Shown here piece by piece: positions 20,244-56,993 of a DNA stretch of 64,000 bases (the stretch's first letter is position 1; each line of letters begins with the position of its first letter). The notes beneath the pieces are model-generated. The model worked only from the letters and a program-made list of their open reading frames with translations, made no database searches and was not told the DNA's origin. This DNA comes from a virus. Taxonomy: Duplodnaviria > Heunggongvirae > Uroviricota > Caudoviricetes. The stretch spans positions 17,490 through 81,489 of the IMG/VR virus record IMGVR_UViG_3300050821_009413; one strand, 5' to 3'. The position numbers and the translations under genes are program-made.

Positions 20244-20245
20244 AC

Positions 20246-20297
20246 GCCGGGGCGGCGGGTGGGAGTTGGGCATCGCACACATCATGGCCGCCCCGGC
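20246..20297 (-). ncRNA. TIGR-like dual-guide hairpin (solo)
   Basis: Minus strand: GCCGGGGCGG-CCA-TGATGTGTG-CG-ATGC-CCA-ACTCCCACC-CG-CCGCCCCGGC. Confidence 0.75.
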
Positions 20298-20404
20298 TCT
20301 TTCTAGAGTACCGTTGTTGCGCCCACAGGTCACCCCCGGCTTTACTGAAATCGAACAGGTCGAAGATCACCCATTCGGCCAGGTCCAACGGCCACGTCGG
20401 GAGC

Positions 20405-30313: not shown

Positions 30314-30698
30314 CCGACCGTAGGATTTGGACGCGTGACGGCTGGGCGGACCTGCGGGCTATGCAGGATTTCCGCACAGAGAGCGGTGTGCAGGCGATGA
30401 TCGACCAGTACGCGAACAGCTTGCCGGCGGAGTTACAGGACGCGACCCGCGACGTGTATGTGCGCGCCTACCGGCGCGCCGGTTTGTTGCCGGGCAACCC
30501 GGATGAGATCGGTACCAGGCTTCCGGCTTTGCGGAACCCGGAAAAGCCAGTAGAGTGTGATTCAGCCTCCGCATCCGCTGCTTGGACTTCGGATGCGGAG
30601 TGCCCTCCAGGTCCGGGGACGGCCAGAGACGGCATGTCACCCATCGACAATTTGCCGTCCCCGGATCCCGCGGGACCCGAAACCTGAGGAGAAATCGA

Positions 30699-34316: not shown

Positions 34317-35159
34317 ATGCTGTCACATGGAAAACTTACGGGCGTGTCCACGGCCATCATCATCCCGTACCGAGACCGGGGTAAGGATCCGCTGCGCGCC
34401 GCTAACCTGGAGCGGTGCTTGGAGTGGTGGGCCGGCTTCGGTGCCCCGGTGATCGTCGCCGACGACGGCAGGGAAGGCGACGCACAGTTCAACCGTTCCG
34501 CGGCCTATAACCGGGGGACCGCACAAACCGACGCTGACATGCTCGTCTACGTCGAATCAGACACCCTGATCCCGTACGAACAAATCCACCAAGCCATCGA
34601 AATGGCGCAACGACGCCTCGGCATGGTCGTACCGTTCACCCACCAAAAGAAACTGTCAGAAACCGACAGCGTACTGGTCCGCGGACGTGAGAAAGAGCCA
34701 GCCGACTGCATACCCACCCGGCACCCGTACGGCGAAAACACCAACTACGGCTGCTGCAACGTCCTATCACGTCGCGCCCTTGAAGGGATCGGGCAGTGGG
34801 ACGAACAATTCGAAGGCCACGGACACGACGACAACGGTATGTTCCACGCTTTCGACACCGTTTTCAAACCGGTAAGGTGGGTAGATGGCAATTCTTATCA
34901 TCTTTACCATCTGGATTTTGATCCGGACACCACCCGGGACCATTCCTACCTAACTAAAGAGGACGTTCTAGCGCAGTCCCGTAACCGGCAACGACTCGAA
35001 TTGTATCGATGCGCGAAAAGCGCCGAAGAAATCCGTCTACTCACCTCAGGGACACCCGTCGCCGAATGGGTTGAGAAACATTGGGGAAGGTTGAACTGGC
35101 GGATCCGCGCATTCATCGGCGACAAGAACGACCCGCTGGTGGGACGGTACACTCCGTGA
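34317..35159 (+). CDS. Glycosyltransferase (GT-A fold, GT2/GT7-like)
   Basis: IIIPYRD..FNRSAAYNRG..VESD..GQWDEQFEGHGHDD. Confidence 0.8.
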   Translation: MLSHGKLTGVSTAIIIPYRDRGKDPLRAANLERCLEWWAGFGAPVIVADDGREGDAQFNRSAAYNRGTAQTDADMLVYVESDTLIPYEQIHQAIEMAQRRLGMVVPFTHQKKLSETDSVLVRGREKEPADCIPTRHPYGENTNYGCCNVLSRRALEGIGQWDEQFEGHGHDDNGMFHAFDTVFKPVRWVDGNSYHLYHLDFDPDTTRDHSYLTKEDVLAQSRNRQRLELYRCAKSAEEIRLLTSGTPVAEWVEKHWGRLNWRIRAFIGDKNDPLVGRYTP

Positions 35160-36166
35160 CCGACAACGATCCGCTGGCGGGCAGGCTCGACCACACATAT
35201 ACTGAAGACCACGGGGACGGCCACCGCGCACGTGATACCCATAGCCCCACTGCCGTCCCCGTTTCAAGCCCTAACTTGTTCGCCGAAGTTACCTGGGAAA
35301 AGACCGACGCCCCACTAGTCGGGGACATGGCCAGGATCCTGCGCGCCGGGCAGTGGGACATCAACAAAATGGCCCACTATCTGCCGGTCTACGAGTCGGC
35401 GTTCGGTGACCGCCATCGCCGGGTGAGGGTGCTTGAGATCGGTGTCAATGTGGGCGGTTCGTTGGAGCTGTGGCGCAAATGGTTCACCAACCGCGGCTCA
35501 GTGATCGTGGGTATCGACTACAACAACAGATGTGCCCAGCTGGAAAACCCGGCCAAGAACATTCACATCAGGATAGGTAAGCAGCAGGACACCGAATTTC
35601 TGCAACGTGTGGTTGAGGAGTTCGGCCCGTTCGATGTAATCCTGGACGACGGCTCCCACATTCCCAGCTTCACATTGAAATCCTTCCAGTACCTGTTCGT
35701 TAACGGACTCAACGACGGGGGATCATATGTTGTGGAGGATTTGCACGCCTGCTATTCCCCAGATTCTTGCGAGCCGTTCCCAGAAGGCCACCCCGAGCTT
35801 GCTGACGCCAATGACGGGTCGCCCACATTCACAGAATTCGTTAAAAATCTGATTAATGTAATGCACGCACACTGGGTGCAGATGCCGACCGGTTTGGACA
35901 TCGACAAGGTTGAGCCAGACAACCCCGCGCGGGTCGATTCATTCCAGGTTCCGTGGGCCACGAAAATGATCAAAAGTATCGAACTACACGATGCGATCGT
36001 TGTTATTAGGCGAGGCGAAAAGGAACTCCCACGCATGATCCGCCGCTGGTCCGAAGAGAAGATGTCGTTGATCGGAAAGCCTGACGACGCCGCCCGATTC
36101 CTTTACGAAAAATTTCCTCATCTCGGTGAGGCCGACAAGACACGACGCGACTATTGGAGCAGATGA
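35156..36166 (+). CDS. Class I SAM-dependent methyltransferase
   Basis: VLEIGV..GGS..W..GID..GKQ.D..FDVILDDGSH..YVVED. Confidence 0.8.
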   Translation: MTDNDPLAGRLDHTYTEDHGDGHRARDTHSPTAVPVSSPNLFAEVTWEKTDAPLVGDMARILRAGQWDINKMAHYLPVYESAFGDRHRRVRVLEIGVNVGGSLELWRKWFTNRGSVIVGIDYNNRCAQLENPAKNIHIRIGKQQDTEFLQRVVEEFGPFDVILDDGSHIPSFTLKSFQYLFVNGLNDGGSYVVEDLHACYSPDSCEPFPEGHPELADANDGSPTFTEFVKNLINVMHAHWVQMPTGLDIDKVEPDNPARVDSFQVPWATKMIKSIELHDAIVVIRRGEKELPRMIRRWSEEKMSLIGKPDDAARFLYEKFPHLGEADKTRRDYWSR

Positions 36167-40284: not shown

Positions 40285-40668
40285 CGGAAAGCCACTTCCA
40301 GCCGCGCTATCTCACACCAACTCCGCACCGCCTGAACAGCGACGAAAGCATCGGGAACCTCAACCTCAACACCGAGCTGGCTGATGAACTTATCCAACTC
40401 GGTAATAATTCCCCCGAAGACGTATTCGGCACCGTCGTGGAACGCTTGAAGGGCGAACTCACGCAGGTCCTTCTCGAACTTAGCCCTGTCCTGCTCACCG
40501 GTGAAGATCATTGATCGGCGTCCGCCCGCACATCGGAATGGAACCCGGCAGCCGCCAACGCATCCTCTATACGTTTGCGGATCGAGCGCCGCGCGATGCG
40601 GATCTTCATCCGCCACAGCCACACCCGAACACTGCGGAACCACACTTGATACACCCACTTCAGATAGG

Positions 40669-40959
40669 TCACCGAACACCTGCCTGGCAGTCACAGCTGG
40701 TGGGAACACCCACCAAGTGCTGCGGAACACGATAGATGTCGGAGATTTCCTGGCCCTGCTTGACACGGTCGGTTGGCACCTTCCCCCGGCAGCGCCCCGT
40801 CTTTTTATGTTTCTTGGGGGCATGCTCACACGTGCAGGGGGTGCGGTGACGGACCTCGGCGATCGTCACCGGAACCCCGCGCCGCTCCTTACGCTCCTGC
40901 CGGGTTTTCTCTTTCTCCAACGCCCACGTGGCCTGCTTAGTTGTAGTCATTTCTTCCAC
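40669..40959 (-). CDS. Small Cys-rich protein
   Basis: C.C.H..H..C..C.C motif. Confidence 0.5.
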   Translation of the reverse strand: MEEMTTTKQATWALEKEKTRQERKERRGVPVTIAEVRHRTPCTCEHAPKKHKKTGRCRGKVPTDRVKQGQEISDIYRVPQHLVGVPTSCDCQAGVR

Positions 40960-41498
40960 ACCTTGTAGTCGACCATTTCGAGCTGCGTCGTGCCTAAGAG
41001 GTTTTTCCGAACGTACGCAGAACCAATCACTTCACCGCGCACCGTCAACGGGATGGACCACACCTCACACGCCTCCGCTATCAATGTCATAACTGGGCAG
41101 CCAACGCATCGTAGGCGGCCTGAAGACTCCCACCTTTACCTGTGAGACCGCTGGCCCGGTGCCGGCACGTGTACACCCGATGCCCATCCTCAGTCTCCGA
41201 CAACACCGTGATCCCCTTAGAATGCAAATCGACCGTGTTAACGTTCATGCCTTTCCTCCCACCAACAGCCGCCGCACGCCGCTGCGGAGGCGCAGGATAC
41301 GCTTTCGCATAGTCAGCCATCAGGTCACCTTCCCGCCGTGAATACGGCCATCAGAATCCATCCACCGCACCTCAGGATGCGCCGTCGTCATATGTAACCA
41401 CATCAACTCCGGCACACCGTCCCTAGTATCAGGGCTGAACACACCATATTCACACACGCTGCACGCCAACCCGATCCAACTACGGGAACGCTGCCCGC

Positions 41499-41807
41499 TC
41501 ACCAGGCCACCGTCGGCGGCAACATAATCAACGGCGGCTCAACAACCCTTTTCGCGCGCATACAGTCGCAACCGCTGCAACCAGCAGCACAATCACGCTG
41601 CTCCGGAGCGCAACAAGGACACGAAGCCCCACGCGCAAACAAATCAGGATTACTCGTCATATCGGAACCTTCTAGGAGGGCTTTCTGCTTATGCGCATCA
41701 ACCACGGTTTTGTGACAACCCACAACCATGCCGGTCTTTGTGTCGGTGACACTGACCGGCGCACCGAACGGGCAGTTCTCGTCACCGGTTTTGATCGCGA
41801 AACGCAT
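41499..41807 (-). CDS. Hypothetical Cys-rich protein (possibly two small genes)
   Basis: First ORF downstream of the leftward guide array. Confidence 0.45.
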   Translation of the reverse strand: MRFAIKTGDENCPFGAPVSVTDTKTGMVVGCHKTVVDAHKQKALLEGSDMTSNPDLFARGASCPCCAPEQRDCAAGCSGCDCMRAKRVVEPPLIMLPPTVAW

Positions 41808-41846
41808 CGCCTAATAATAAGTGGTCAGAGGGCTAGTGGGCGGTGC

Positions 41847-41897
41847 TCCGGGCCGGCGATTCGCCTTGGGGATCGTGCACTCTATAGCCGACCCGGA
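41847..41897 (-). ncRNA. TIGR-like dual-guide hairpin
   Basis: TCCGGGTCGG-CTA-TAGAGTGCA-CG-ATCC-CCA-AGGCGAAT-CG-CCGGCCCGGA (first box variant CTA). Confidence 0.65.
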
Positions 41898-41912
41898 ACG
41901 CCGCGGCTGGGG

Positions 41913-41966
41913 CTTCAGGACGGCGCTCTCGTTTTGGGGAACGGGCTCAAGATGGCCGCCCTGAAG
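41913..41966 (-). ncRNA. TIGR-like dual-guide hairpin
   Basis: CTTCAGGGCGG-CCA-TCTTGAGCC-CG-TTCC-CCA-AAACGAGAG-CG-CCGTCCTGAAG. Confidence 0.8.
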
Positions 41967-42001
41967 CGGTCGATGGGCTTCCTTTCGTTGCTGGGGTGGC
42001 C

Positions 42002-42046
42002 CGGGCGGCGGACACGTCTTGGTTTGCACGGAATCATGGCCGCCCG
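42002..42046 (-). ncRNA. TIGR-like dual-guide hairpin
   Basis: CGGGCGG-CCA-TGATTCCG-TG-CAAA-CCA-AGACGTGTC-CG-CCGCCCG. Confidence 0.8.
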
Positions 42047-42057
42047 AACCACCCAAG

Positions 42058-42063
42058 AGTATA
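42058..42063 (-). promoter_or_regulatory. Putative leftward -10 box (TATACT)
   Basis: 12 nt upstream of first leftward guide hairpin; -35 not clear. Confidence 0.45.
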
Positions 42064-42218
42064 GCAGCCAACTGGCACCTTGCGTCCAGCCTTAACGACC
42101 TGCTACACTTACACCATGTTCACTGCGCGCAACCACACACGACCGTCGTGGCCCTGGCCTTATACGGCCCAGGGTTAATAGCGCGCATCACCACCCGCTA
42201 GCAACCCCGGGCTACAAC

Positions 42219-42297
42219 CGGGGTGTGGGCCAACTTGGTAGGCCACCTGCTTTGGGTGCAGGCATCGCTGGGGGTTCGAATCCCTCCTCCCCGACCA
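42219..42297 (+). tRNA. tRNA-Pro(TGG)
   Basis: Cloverleaf; cctgc-TT TGG GT-gcagg; encoded CCA. Confidence 0.9.
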
Positions 42298-42298
42298 C

Positions 42299-42372
42299 AT
42301 ACCCGTGGTGTAGTGGTAGCACAAGGGCCTCCAAACCCCTTAGTGTGGGTTCGATTCCTACCGGGTGTGCCA
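42299..42372 (+). tRNA. tRNA-Trp(CCA)
   Basis: Loop CT CCA AA; TTCGATT; encoded CCA. Confidence 0.9.
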
Positions 42373-42393
42373 ACTTTGGGTGCGCGCTTTCAT

Positions 42394-42472
42394 GCGGGTC
42401 AGCGACGGGTGTCGCAAGCCGCCTGTAAAGCGGCTGCCGTTGGCATGGACAGTTCGAGTCTGTCGGCCCGCA
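42394..42472 (+). tRNA. tRNA-Tyr(GTA), reduced D loop
   Basis: gccgc-CT GTA AA-gcggc; long variable arm; 4-nt D loop. Confidence 0.8.
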
Positions 42473-42482
42473 CGATAGCTGG

Positions 42483-42512
42483 TTGCGTAGCCAATGGCCA
42501 CCATGGTATGAT
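42483..42512 (+). promoter_or_regulatory. SigA-type promoter
   Basis: TTGCGT-N18-TATGAT. Confidence 0.6.
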
Positions 42513-42558
42513 TTAAGTAACGGCAATTGCTATGACTTTTGACAACTGAAAACATTGT

Positions 42559-42630
42559 GCGACCGTGGCCGAGTGGCGAGGCAACAGCCTGCAAAGCTGT
42601 TCTACGCGAGTTCGATTCTCGCCGGGCGCT
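42559..42630 (+). tRNA. tRNA-Cys(GCA)
   Basis: acagc-CT GCA AA-gctgt. Confidence 0.9.
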
Positions 42631-42634
42631 CAAA

Positions 42635-42680
42635 CCGGCGGCCATTCCCAGTACGTTCCCCAGATGGCAACTGCCGCCGG
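42635..42680 (+). ncRNA. TIGR-like dual-guide hairpin (between tRNA-Cys and tRNA-His)
   Basis: CCGGCGG-CCA-TTCCCAGTA-CG-TTCC-CCA-GATGGCAAC-TG-CCGCCGG. Confidence 0.85.
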
Positions 42681-42687
42681 GTCAATC

Positions 42688-42758
42688 CCTGCGTTAGCCT
42701 AGTGGTAAGGCATCTGGTTGTGATCCAGAGAACCGGCGTTCGATTCGCCGACGTGGGA
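42688..42758 (+). tRNA. tRNA-His(GTG)
   Basis: tctgg-TT GTG AT-ccaga; lacks G-1/C73. Confidence 0.85.
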
Positions 42759-42840
42759 CAGTGGGCCAGGGTTCCCAGTGTTTGCCCTCATTGAGGCCGT
42801 GGCTCCGGAGCCAAGAAGCCCACGAACCGGAGCATTTAAA

Positions 42841-42911
42841 GCGGATGTGGTGTAGTGGTAACATCTCACTCTTCCAAAGTGATGTCGCCGGTTCGAACCC
42901 GGTCTTCCGCT
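42841..42911 (+). tRNA. tRNA-Gly(TCC)
   Basis: tcact-CT TCC AA-agtga. Confidence 0.9.
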
Positions 42912-43018
42912 CGCTAGCACCCCTCACCGCTGATGCTGGGGCATCACGCGCCGAAAGGCCTGGGGGGCGCTGACCCGAAACGGTGAGAAGGGTTGGCAAC
43001 AAAAATGCTGGCACCAAA

Positions 43019-43438
43019 GGGGCCGAAAGGTTTCGACAGGTGATTTGACAACTGAACAGCGGGCAAGTGTTGACCGCATTTCTACTTTGAGTGAACGCGG
43101 TAAAAAGATAAACGTCGACACTAACGACGCAACGGTCACCGAGGCCGACTTCGCCGAGATCGAGGCTTTCGCCAACGGTCTCGTCGCCGTCTGAATCGGC
43201 TGACCAGCCTGAAACAAGCTGACCGCTCGCAGCGTTTCGGGCTTAAAATCTAGAAGCGGTAGACCAGACGACAGCCACGTCTCTAAACCGGGTTGGCTCC
43301 CGCCGTAGGGAGTTATTAGGTGCGGCTTTGGTAGCAGGAGTTGTCTCGTACAACCTGCGCCGAGAAGTAAACGAGACTACGCCCGTAGAACCCTTTTAGA
43401 TAAAATCCTGGACCCGTGTTCGATTCACGGCGGCTCCA
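43019..43438 (+). ncRNA. ssrA: tmRNA
   Basis: GGGGCCG/CGGCTCC acceptor with G3.U70; GGTTTCGAC 5' motif; T arm at 3' end; tag ORF 43114..43194 (A)VDTNDATVTEADFAEIEAFANGLVAV*. Confidence 0.92.
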
Positions 43439-43442
43439 CAAA

Positions 43443-43488
43443 GGGAAGGCCAGGTAGAGCGTGACACCCAAAAACAGGATGCCTTCCC
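43443..43488 (+). ncRNA. TIGR-like dual-guide hairpin (between tmRNA and tRNA-Ala)
   Basis: GGGAAGG-CCA-GGTAGAGCG-TG-ACAC-CCA-AAAACAGGA-TG-CCTTCCC. Confidence 0.85.
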
Positions 43489-43492
43489 ACCT

Positions 43493-43565
43493 GGGGATAT
43501 AGCTCCAACGGTAGAGCAACTCCTTTGCAAGGAGACGGCTGGGGGTTCGAATCCCTCTATCTCCA
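43493..43565 (+). tRNA. tRNA-Ala(TGC)
   Basis: GGGGATA start; loop TT TGC AA. Confidence 0.9.
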
Positions 43566-43614
43566 CACCGTGCGGGCACGGTATTGGCAGGAATCGACCT
43601 GCCAGCCCGCACTT

Positions 43615-43687
43615 GCCTAGTTAGCTCAGATGGAAGAGCGTCCGGTTGAAGCCCGGAAGGCCCAAGGTTCGACTCCTTGACTTGGCA
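43615..43687 (+). tRNA. tRNA-Phe(GAA)
   Basis: tccgg-TT GAA GC-ccgga. Confidence 0.9.
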
Positions 43688-43852
43688 CAGGGCGGAGCGG
43701 CTTGCACCAGGTACCGGGTTGCAGGTTCCTTCGGTGAGAGCCGAGGGTCGGTCGTTGTTCGCGACAGCGACCGGGAACCGCCCGTTAAGTACAGGCTGGT
43801 GTTCGCACGCACCGCTCCGATGCACCCGCGCCGTCGGGGGCCTGTACTTGAT

Positions 43853-43923
43853 GCCCGATTAGCTCAATGGGAGAGCACCCCGTTCACACCGGGGATACTG
43901 GGGTTCGATTCCCTGATTGGGTA
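43853..43923 (+). tRNA. tRNA-Val(CAC)
   Basis: ccccg-TT CAC AC-cgggg. Confidence 0.88.
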
Positions 43924-43926
43924 CAA

Positions 43927-43972
43927 GGGACGGCCATACCCGATGTGTTACCCAAGTGCGTTCTGCTGTCCC
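43927..43972 (+). ncRNA. TIGR-like dual-guide hairpin (between two tRNA-Val)
   Basis: GGGACGG-CCA-TACCCGATG-TG-TTAC-CCA-AGTGCGTTC-TG-CTGTCCC. Confidence 0.85.
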
Positions 43973-43976
43973 GATT

Positions 43977-44048
43977 GTCCTGTTAGCTCAGTGGTAGAGC
44001 GCCGCGGTGACATCGCGGAGGCCCGGAGTTCAATCCTCTGACGGGACA
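43977..44048 (+). tRNA. tRNA-Val(GAC)
   Basis: ccgcg-GT GAC AT-cgcgg. Confidence 0.88.
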
Positions 44049-44049
44049 C

Positions 44050-44310
44050 ATGATGAAATGGTCTTGGCGTTGCGCCAGCTGCACGAATCGTGTGGTTATT
44101 GAGTCGGATTTTGCGGGCGCTGTTCCGCGGCGTGTGGTGTGCGCACAGTGCCGCGGGGCGGTCGTCGCGGAGTGGCCACATTCACGCGCGTTAGGGGAGC
44201 GGTGGATAGTGTTTCCGTGTCCGTGGCCGGCTGACCAGAAATGGCCTGGCCTAAAATTTTTTGCTACTCGCGAAGAAGCGCAGGATTGGGTACAATCGTT
44301 ACAACCATAA
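44050..44310 (+). CDS. Small Cys-rich hypothetical protein within tRNA array
   Basis: CxxC..CxxC pairs. Confidence 0.5.
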   Translation: MMKWSWRCASCTNRVVIESDFAGAVPRRVVCAQCRGAVVAEWPHSRALGERWIVFPCPWPADQKWPGLKFFATREEAQDWVQSLQP

Positions 44311-44363
44311 GGAGCTACGGAATGAAGCGAAAGCAGACAACGCGAACTACCGCGTACTTTCGC

Positions 44364-44435
44364 GCGCCCGTAGCTGAGTGGTTATAGCTCGAGACTCTTA
44401 ATCTTGAGACGTGGGTTCGATTCCCACCGGGCGTA
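44364..44435 (+). tRNA. tRNA-Lys(CTT)
   Basis: cgaga-CT CTT AA-tcttg. Confidence 0.9.
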
Positions 44436-44440
44436 CGTAC

Positions 44441-44485
44441 GGGACGGCCAATTCGTTGTGATTCCCAAAAGATGGCCGCCGTCCC
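44441..44485 (+). ncRNA. TIGR-like dual-guide hairpin (between tRNA-Lys and tRNA-Thr)
   Basis: GGGACGG-CCA-ATTCGTTG-TG-ATTC-CCA-AAAGATGGC-CG-CCGTCCC. Confidence 0.82.
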
Positions 44486-44491
44486 GTCGCT

Positions 44492-44566
44492 GCCACTGTA
44501 GCTGTTGTTGGCATCAGCACCGACCTCGTAAGTCGGAGAGCGCGAGTTCGATTCTCGCCCGTGGCT
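44492..44566 (+). tRNA. tRNA-Thr(CGT)
   Basis: ccgac-CT CGT AA-gtcgg. Confidence 0.85.
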
Positions 44567-44570
44567 CGAA

Positions 44571-44616
44571 GGGACGGCCAAACGCCAAGCGACACCCAGA
44601 GACCGGTTGCCGTCCC
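44571..44616 (+). ncRNA. TIGR-like dual-guide hairpin (between tRNA-Thr genes)
   Basis: GGGACGG-CCA-AACGCCAAG-CG-ACAC-CCA-GAGACCGGT-TG-CCGTCCC. Confidence 0.85.
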
Positions 44617-44620
44617 GCAC

Positions 44621-44691
44621 GCCGACATAGCATAGTGGTAGTGCGCTTCCATGGTAAGGAAGTGGCCCGGGTCCGATTCCCGGTTTCGGCT
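44621..44691 (+). tRNA. tRNA-Thr(GGT)
   Basis: cttcc-AT GGT AA-ggaag. Confidence 0.88.
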
Positions 44692-44696
44692 CGATC

Positions 44697-44742
44697 TCGA
44701 CGGCCATTGAAGATGCGGCACCCATACCTGAACTGCCGTCGA
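44697..44742 (+). ncRNA. TIGR-like dual-guide hairpin (between tRNA-Thr genes)
   Basis: TCGACGG-CCA-TTGAAGATG-CG-GCAC-CCA-TACCTGAAC-TG-CCGTCGA. Confidence 0.85.
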
Positions 44743-44747
44743 GACGC

Positions 44748-44820
44748 GCCGTTGTAGCTCAACTGGTAGAGCACTCGCCTTGTAAGCGAAAGGTTCGGGG
44801 TTCGAGACCTCGTAGCGGCT
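44748..44820 (+). tRNA. tRNA-Thr(TGT)
   Basis: tcgc-CT TGT AA-gcga. Confidence 0.9.
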
Positions 44821-49493: not shown

Positions 49494-49548
49494 GTCCGGG
49501 GCTGGCCATAGTTGCTGTGATATCCAGACCGAATCCGCCGCCCCGGAC
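49494..49548 (+). ncRNA. TIGR-like dual-guide hairpin (solo, intergenic)
   Basis: GTCCGGGGCTGG-CCA-TAGTTGCTG-TG-ATAT-CCA-GACCGAATC-CG-CCGCCCCGGAC. Confidence 0.8.
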
Positions 49549-55466: not shown

Positions 55467-56231
55467 ATGACCAATCAAATTAAGCTCAACCAAATCATTG
55501 CCATCGAGAAAGGTGTCAAGAATCAGACCACCCGCGTGGAGACTGATCTGTACCACTCTTTGGAGAAGAAGCAGCTTTTCGCGGGTTTGAGTCGGACGTA
55601 CCGTCCGAAGGATGAGGAGGACGGTGACCGTCTTCCGCCGGAGTCGGTGTCGGTTCAGATCAAGTCGACGGATGTGCTTAAGCAGCTCACCCAGGTGTTG
55701 ACGAGGCTGTTCGATGTCACGGCCACTAAGGACGCGGCTAACACCAGGGCCAAGGCCGACGTTGTTGTAGACGGAACTGTGATCGCGGCGGCGGTGCCGG
55801 TGACGACGTTGATGTTCTTCGAGAAGGAGTTGGAGAAGATCGCTGCGTTCGTGGGCCGGGTGCCTCTGCTTGATCCGGCTATCCAGTGGAGTTACGACGA
55901 TTCGGTCGGGGTGTTCCGGTCCGCTCCGGTGGAGACGGTCCGCACGAAGAAGGTTCCGAAGAACCACGTGCTGGCCGAGGCCACGAAGGAACACCCTGCG
56001 CAGGTGCAGATGTTCACCGAAGATATCCCTGTCGGTATGTGGTCGAAGACCGAGTTTTCCGGTGCGATGAAGGCTGATGACGTCGCCGCTATCGCGTCGC
56101 GGGTCGATAAGCTGCGCACCGCGGTGAAGTTCGCGCGGGAAGAAGCTAACAGCATCGCCGTGGAGGACGTTCACTACGGCGAGAACATCCTTAACTACCT
56201 CTTCGAAGGAGGTTCACAAGTTTCGGGTTGA
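55467..56231 (+). CDS. Conserved actinobacterial hypothetical protein (KLNQIIAxEKG family)
   Basis: Strong RBS; helical plus beta-hairpin pattern; directly upstream of tandem tRNA-mimic RNAs. Confidence 0.7.
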   Translation: MTNQIKLNQIIAIEKGVKNQTTRVETDLYHSLEKKQLFAGLSRTYRPKDEEDGDRLPPESVSVQIKSTDVLKQLTQVLTRLFDVTATKDAANTRAKADVVVDGTVIAAAVPVTTLMFFEKELEKIAAFVGRVPLLDPAIQWSYDDSVGVFRSAPVETVRTKKVPKNHVLAEATKEHPAQVQMFTEDIPVGMWSKTEFSGAMKADDVAAIASRVDKLRTAVKFAREEANSIAVEDVHYGENILNYLFEGGSQVSG

Positions 56232-56633: not shown

Positions 56634-56701
56634 GGCGCACGTTCCGGTGACTAGCGAAGCTCTAACCTTCGCGACCGCGGGTTCGACTCCCGCATGCGCC
56701 G
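56634..56701 (+). tRNA. tRNA-like gene with CUA anticodon (amber suppressor/Pyl-like shape)
   Basis: gcgaag-CT CTA AC-cttcgc 6-bp stem; tiny D arm; normal T arm; ggcgca/tgcgcc acceptor. Confidence 0.7.
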
Positions 56702-56993
56702 CGTGAAAGCCAGGTTCCAAACCATCCCGCCGGAATGTCAGCACTGCGGCATCATCGACAGTCCAGACTTTGGTGCCCCGGTGGATTGCTACGAAGACAA
56801 CGAACCCGACCCGCGCTGGTTCATGTGGTTATGCGCTAATTGCCGAACCGACCAGTGGCATGCCAGCAACGGCACGGTCTCGTTGCGGGAGTTCCTTGGG
56901 CAAACCGAACTGGAACATAAATACTGGGTCGAAGGCAAGTGGGAGCCGTTCGCTGACGCTTACTACGAACGTGTCTGCGGAAACGACTGACAT

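Follow-up and report, generated by a model that had tools for sequence, protein, structure and literature searches.

The trio locus and its surroundings

We analyzed a 64,000-nt stretch of viral DNA (the window), which is part of a single-contig virus record (G000) that is linear, 145,489 bp long, 59% GC and rated 100% complete. This 145-kb genome, of a soil phage, is actinophage-like. A minor tail protein is ~50% identical to counterparts in Mycobacterium phages, and the window encodes a tyrosine integrase, a tail protein that combines GDSL lipase and PE-PPE domains, 30 tRNAs and one tmRNA. Elsewhere in the window, a 254-aa protein (55467-56231, plus strand) matched DUF7873 (E 1e-100), and ARAGORN called a tRNA with a CUA anticodon, labelled Pyl, at 56634-56702 (plus strand), which was absent from the Rfam tRNA matches at gathering threshold and would be of the amber-suppressor type. 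The features around the three hairpins that concern us here, U1 to U3, are as follows, with scores from a covariance model (R2) introduced in the next section.

42101-42109, plus strand: extended −10 box TGCTACACT, read from the sequence, back-to-back with the leftward box
42066-42058, minus strand: extended −10 box TGCTATACT, with TATACT at 42063-42058 and TGC directly 5' of it
42050-41998, minus strand: U1, from covariance-model coordinates, inverted repeat and fold; 28.8 bits, E 7e-7
41966-41913, minus strand: U2, from covariance-model coordinates and inverted repeat; 31.9 bits, E 1e-7
41898-41846, minus strand: U3, from covariance-model coordinates; 38.2 bits, E 2.5e-9
41814-41819, minus strand: TATTAT hexamer, 6 nt before the ATG at 41807
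41807-41499, 41502-41320, 41320-41087 and 40959-40669, minus strand: small overlapping leftward ORFs after the trio, from the ORF list

The sequence-only reading that preceded this analysis had described a TATACT −10 box on the minus strand, three consecutive units of one architecture (42002-42046, 41913-41966 and 41847-41897), a CTA variant box in one of them, a position ahead of a run of small leftward genes, and divergence from the tRNA operon. We recovered every one of these elements: the box is present and becomes an extended −10 with the preceding TGC, the three units are U1, U2 and U3, the CTA variant belongs to U3, the leftward ORFs run from 41807-41499 to 40959-40669, and the tRNA operon points the other way (tRNA-Pro starts at 42219 on the plus strand), with the TGCTACACT box as the likely promoter of the tRNAs and tmRNA.

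Upstream of the trio −10 box there was no good match to a −35 element at 16–18 nt, and a simple two-hexamer sigma-70 scan did not call the trio promoter; both results count against the promoter-led reading developed below. A 15-mer containing the trio −10, CCAGTTGGCTGCTAT, recurs once in the genome, at G000:531-545 (plus strand), before another gene at the left end, and CTGCTAYACT is common to the trio promoter and the rightward tRNA promoter. The trio promoter (42058-42075, minus strand), the promoter-like left-end site (G000:531-548, plus strand) and the tRNA promoter may be co-regulated or carry a common operator.

Each hairpin could be parsed into a stem, two boxed spacers and a short linker. 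U1 reads as stem CGGGCGG/CCGCCCG, CCA, 8-nt spacer A, TG, CAAA, CCA, 9-nt spacer B and CG, its stem being lengthened by an outer helix to 41991-42057. U2 reads as stem CTTCAGGGCGG/CCGTCCTGAAG, CCA, 9-nt spacer A, CG, TTCC, CCA, 9-nt spacer B and CG, with CUU at its stem foot, and U3 as stem CCGGGTCGG/CCGGCCCGG, the CTA variant box, 9-nt spacer A, CG, ATCC, CCA, 8-nt spacer B and CG. The replacement of the first CCA by CTA is shared by U3 and one other family member, at G000:116524. A 261-nt stretch folded into exactly U1–U3 at −117.7 kcal/mol (z = −4.9), and none of 200 shuffles folded as well. The units are separated by linkers of 31 nt (41967-41997) and 14 nt (41899-41912) on the minus strand, giving a period of 68–84 nt, and together form the largest tandem group of the family in this genome. 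Both linkers open with CCCCAGC; 3' of many other units we observed C-Y-A-A-A-C-like tails (CCTAAAC, CTAAAT, CCAAAC), and these linker starts and tails may be a 3' processing or boundary signal.

The first leftward gene (41499-41807, minus strand) encodes a Cys-rich protein of 102 aa with a positive codon score, for which NCBIfam returned no match. The TATTAT hexamer is a possible leaderless-type promoter that would serve the leftward operon separately, and a terminator scan found none between U3 and this gene.

A hairpin family associated with a TasA-like protein

A first covariance model, built from ten units and searched over the whole genome, found ~38 strand-specific copies of the hairpin on both strands, located between tRNAs, between protein genes and inside ORFs, sometimes antisense to their neighbors; many lie a few to tens of nt 5' of start codons, and many right after stop codons. 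All but one of 38 members (37) parse as stem, CCA, 9 nt, YG, 4 nt, CCA, 9 nt, YG, stem. Among these 37 parsed units, 34 have a 9-nt spacer A, 31 a 9-nt spacer B and 34 a 4-nt linker; box C is CCA in 35 of the first and all 37 of the second boxes. Box D is TG or CG family-wide, the published U often being replaced by C. Every A spacer and every B spacer is distinct (37/37 each), and the closing stems of 8–11 bp hold loops of ~29 nt. Double changes were found in 8 of 10 stem pairs and 94.6% of cells were paired, values that none of 500 shuffles reached. Rfam offered no family for the hairpins at either gathering or permissive thresholds.

Model R2 was built from 32 other family members, with U1–U3 left out, and scored the trio at 28.8–38.2 bits on the minus strand (E 2.5e-9 to 7e-7), in comparison with 15.7, 6.5 and 5.6 bits on the plus strand. 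Given that the trio was left out of the model, its family membership and its orientation are independent results. The best family members score ~50 bits, above the trio. Other members within the window include the following.

42631-42684, plus strand: nearest opposite-strand family member, between tRNA-Cys and tRNA-His
42631, 43439, 43923, 44437, 44567, 44693 and 47163: starts of the seven inter-tRNA units, including the preceding one
20245-20298, minus strand: solo unit, antisense to the plus-strand gene beside it, with TACTCT just 5' of the stem
30612-30665, 35210-35263 and 49494-49548, plus strand: further solo units

Of the 37 parsed units, at least 10 by script and 13 by visual inspection have a TANNNT box 3–10 nt 5' of the stem foot, compared with 3.5% of random positions. 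This recurrence argues for independent, promoter-driven guide transcription. Several of the units with such a box are antisense to flanking genes, and would therefore be expressible from their own promoter alone. CUU at the stem foot was weakly enriched (8/37 units vs. 9% by chance).

With regard to the spacers, we noted a weak consensus for spacer A (T-A-C-C-G-n-G-Y-G) and seven pairs of A spacers differing at two or fewer of nine positions, with ~0.75 expected; such non-randomness suggests either that the spacers were duplicated and then diverged or that their target half-sites are related. Within the trio, the B spacers agree at 4–5 of 8–9 positions, which places them in the top 2–11% of all pairs and is mildly above background, and together with the shared CCCCAGC linker starts this hints at local duplication, not acquisition. 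In the solo unit at 30612-30665 (plus strand), spacer A (GAGACGGCA) resembles the reverse complement of the unit's own 3' stem arm, so that its predicted target is the unit itself with one mismatch (G000:48133-48150), which could be chance or a trace of spacer origin. Another unit lies at codons 43–61 of a methyltransferase-like ORF (35081-36166, plus strand) that resembles PDB 3SSM from residue ~100; TATACT precedes this unit, and the true start codon of the ORF is probably downstream of it, which would give the order promoter, hairpin, gene.

TIGR-Tas systems were first described in 2025 (Faure et al., 2025; PMC12045711). In their stem-loop form, the tigRNA carries two spacers of 8–12 nt, each with a box C (CCA) before and a box D (UG) after it, and palindromic stems (PMC12045711). 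By testing hairpin-containing ORFs, we found a tas gene in the same genome, outside the window.

G000:101058-102068 (window numbering 83569-84579), minus strand: tas gene, 336 aa, TasA-like

The protein matched NCBIfam NF052498 (TIGR_Tas_endo) over residues 65–298 with 190.4 bits (cut-off 100), and a phmmer search of the PDB retrieved 9MTY (TaTasR; E 4.7e-8) and TasH (E 0.003). We collected 581 homologues, some of them named TIGR-Tas by NCBI. The protein consists of a 64-aa low-complexity N-terminus, a 234-aa core and a short tail, and two tigRNA units (G000:101898 and G000:101983) are embedded in the 64 N-terminal codons. Conservation in an alignment with 34 homologues was confined to the core, and Pfam gave no match at E ≤ 1 and no nuclease domain (no RuvC or HNH). 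Given that the core alone is conserved and a nuclease domain is missing, the phage Tas is TasA-like. A six-frame search of the genome with the Pfam models Nop (PF01798) and Transposase_20 (PF02371) returned no match.

At 18 of 20 related tas loci from other Actinomycetota, in genomes including Mycobacterium, Tsukamurella, Nocardia and Streptomyces, the hairpin model placed tandem units on the same strand as tas, either within the gene or a short way 5' of it. This canonical layout ties the hairpin family to the clade of the phage's Tas. Dual boxed spacers, covarying stems, a Tas protein in the same element and no nuclease fusion are thus all found here. These sequence features support the identification of U1–U3 as TIGR stem-loop hairpins with dual guides that form one family with the inter-tRNA units. 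In contrast to every published TIGR locus, the array does not lie beside or inside tas, which is ~42 kb from the trio; proximity to tas is not a mechanistic requirement, and the distance does count against the guide reading. Other explanations (MITE/REP-like elements, attC-like sites, nut/put-like antitermination hairpins and RNase P external guide sequences) were dropped after the TIGR layout and the Tas gene had emerged.

Arrays of stem-loop units with a nuclease-free TasA have been described for PlTasA (from a Peromyscus gut contig), BlTasA (Bifidobacterium longum) and MbTasA (PMC12045711; bioRxiv 10.64898/2026.09.09.750476; Guan et al., 2026, bioRxiv 10.64898/2026.08.11.744272). The phage system shares with them two ~9-nt spacers per hairpin, the CCA and (U/C)G boxes, a covarying stem, a nuclease-free Tas, units inside the 5' end of tas, and CUU or UUC at some stem feet. 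It differs in that the trio is one of ~38 scattered units, carries a −10 box of its own directly next to the first stem, and is back-to-back with a tRNA operon that bears seven units, whereas the known arrays are beside or inside tas. Dual-repeat TIGR systems with TasR or TasH (TaTasR, 9MTY; SpTasH of Salicola phage CGphi29) have in common with the phage units the tandem-spacer logic, CCA/UG boxes, a Nop-type domain and carriage by phages. However, they have fixed edge and loop repeats of 8–12 nt with a period of 36 nt and lack long stems, Tas carries out or takes part in their processing, and they are linked to cleavage by RuvC or HNH, while the phage units have long stems, a period of 68–84 nt and a nuclease-free protein.

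Likenesses extend to box C/D sRNAs and snoRNAs, in which two guide segments are framed by C and D boxes and bound to a Nop-domain protein, and to plant dicistronic tRNA-snoRNA genes, which the inter-tRNA units recall, with tRNA processing enzymes as the obvious release route. Unlike box C/D RNAs, the phage units come without K-turn, L7Ae or fibrillarin, have boxes of 2–3 nt and, by analogy, would have DNA and not RNA as target. Phage CRISPR mini-arrays and solitary repeat units are similar as short viral guide arrays with a leader promoter, far from the effector gene, but they consist of single ~32-nt spacers between direct repeats and need host Cas proteins, in contrast to the dual 9-mers in hairpins and the phage-encoded effector found here.

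Transcripts, targets and competing explanations

Contigs from three soil metatranscriptome runs matched the tRNA/tmRNA array (42140-44768) at 100% identity, including the inter-tRNA hairpins, and one contig spanned 42140-42298. These matches hint weakly at expression of the array in situ; presence in an RNA library is not proof of transcription. The region 40500-42116, with the trio and the leftward genes, had no metatranscriptome contig, and assembled contigs are uninformative for RNAs of ~50 nt and for RNA ends. A DNA run from another sample contained the identical sequence and no variant.

For target searches, we required spacer A on one strand and spacer B on the other, 0–2 bp apart. A scan of the phage itself with this published geometry gave no exact site and two matches with one mismatch (0.3 expected), neither from the trio. 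Exact sites for U1, U2 and U3 were also absent from 401 genomes of the order to which a Mycobacterium with a related tas belongs, and from 1.7 Mb of fetched viral and prophage loci, where matches were at chance level. That the predicted DNA targets were found neither in the phage nor in the fetched loci nor in the 401 genomes weighs against the guide reading.

Relatives of the locus were scarce. The sole match in a nucleotide search of the phage collection was a tRNA, and five viral records related through the minor tail protein were essentially without hairpins. Degenerate DNA patterns gave chance matches in viral contigs and one weak candidate record (G006), neither the Tas protein nor the 102-aa neighbor had close relatives in viral or metagenome contigs, and no related genome with the trio junction was present in the collections searched.

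The hairpins might instead act in cis, as stabilizing stem-loops or a regulatory 5' leader of the leftward operon, without being released as guides. They do follow a promoter-like box and precede the first gene, and without a terminator after U3 they are readable as a 5' leader, which counts against our preferred explanation; the many family members shortly upstream of start codons fit this too. We nonetheless consider a purely cis-acting role unlikely, because members of the family are also found between tRNAs, within ORFs and antisense to genes, because boxes C and D and the precise 9-nt spacing are kept while all spacers differ, because the family accompanies tas in other genomes, and because the leftward operon possibly has its own leaderless-type promoter in TATTAT. 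The leader and guide readings are also compatible, as a guide could be cut from an mRNA leader.

It is likewise improbable that the trio consists of decaying or orphan copies, left over from duplication or dispersal and by now neither expressed nor loaded. Such a history would be consistent with one 8-nt spacer each in U1 and U3, the CTA box of U3, independent-model scores of 29–38 bits compared with ~50 bits for the top members, and the outcome of the target searches. However, the stems are complete in all three, both invariant G-C box pairs are retained along with the 4-nt linker, CTA is also found in another well-formed unit, and a strong −10 box still stands where a promoter for the trio would need it. 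The departures from consensus in U1 (8-nt spacer A, CAAA linker) and U3 (CTA, 8-nt spacer B) do speak against a fully functional trio: one or more of its units may be decaying, and U1 and U3 may be weaker guides.

That the hairpins are terminators or insulators between the divergent tRNA and leftward units is very improbable: GC-rich intergenic stems and the many family members right after stop codons would suit this role, yet the hairpins have no U-tracts, their 29-nt loops are far outside terminator geometry (3–8 nt), the scan called none of them, the trio is downstream of a promoter and not of a gene, and the strand-specific conserved loop boxes would be left unexplained. Just as improbable is a small protein encoded by the 86-aa ORF spanning the three hairpins (42071-41811, minus strand), since, even though the frame stays open across the block and ends 4 nt before the next ATG, and tigRNA units are known inside the coding sequence of tas genes, its codon score is −0.05 per codon (neighbors +0.05 to +0.15, called-gene median 0.19), its TTG start is upstream of the −10 box, and its product is low-complexity and Gly/Pro-rich, as expected from translated GC hairpins.

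Probable guide production from the trio and its implications

We favor the explanation that the trio is probably a small, promoter-led stem-loop TIGR array that provides guides for the phage's TasA-like protein. Leftward transcription would probably begin from the extended −10 at 42066-42058, with a predicted start at ~42052-42050, which is the foot of the U1 stem; given this position, little if any trimming would be required at the 5' end of U1. Cuts by host RNases within the 31-nt and 14-nt linkers would then release the individual units; in the known systems, processing takes place at the stem-foot CUU (Xu et al., 2026, bioRxiv 10.64898/2026.09.09.750476). A dimer of the nuclease-free Tas encoded 42 kb away would take up the mature RNAs, and spacers A and B would pair with opposite DNA strands at a site of ~18 bp. 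TasA and dead TasR are RNA-guided transcriptional repressors (bioRxiv 10.64898/2026.09.09.750476), and by analogy with the tested TasA proteins, binding of the phage Tas would block transcription without cutting. Processing of the tRNA ends would release the sister units located between tRNAs.

The tRNA transcript cannot be the source of the trio, which is encoded on the other strand. The sequence-only reading had proposed a stand-alone array, independent of the tRNAs, and two biogenesis routes for one guide family. The common family, the opposite strand and the recurrent −10 box lend this partial support, while promoter use, processing, loading and repression by the trio are steps that we infer. 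Since the strand is opposite and the box recurs in at least 10 of 37 units, two routes to one guide family, one promoter-led and one tRNA-flanked, would be the most economical reading of the sequence. Such a reading bears on a question raised by Xu et al. (2026), whether stem-loop tigRNAs derive from longer transcripts or from promoters of their own. For the further suggestion of the sequence-only reading, that new guides are possibly acquired at this array, we found no support.

A broader and more doubtful proposal is that the ~38 scattered units form a repertoire of distributed, individually timed guides, which would make TasA a temporally programmed repressor with multiple targets among host or rival-phage genes. 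Many units would then be the first transcribed element, and each transcription unit, such as the trio or the tRNA operon, would deliver its own guides on firing. The trio promoter would be co-regulated through the CTGCTAYACT shared with the tRNA promoter and the 15-mer shared with the left-end promoter, and stem-loop tigRNAs would be initiated at promoters without any 5' processing.

In previous work, sequence alone could not separate co-transcription with tas from transcription by the arrays' own promoters, for which mapping of transcription starts is needed (Xu et al., 2026, bioRxiv 10.64898/2026.09.09.750476). The TIGR system itself is known; what would be new here are unlinked, promoter-led stem-loop tigRNA genes, and the phage trio offers a natural test case for how stem-loop guides are made. 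If the predicted start is true, stem-loop tigRNAs can be primary transcripts, and guide genes can do without linkage to their effector. In that case, surveys restricted to tas neighborhoods would undercount guide genes.
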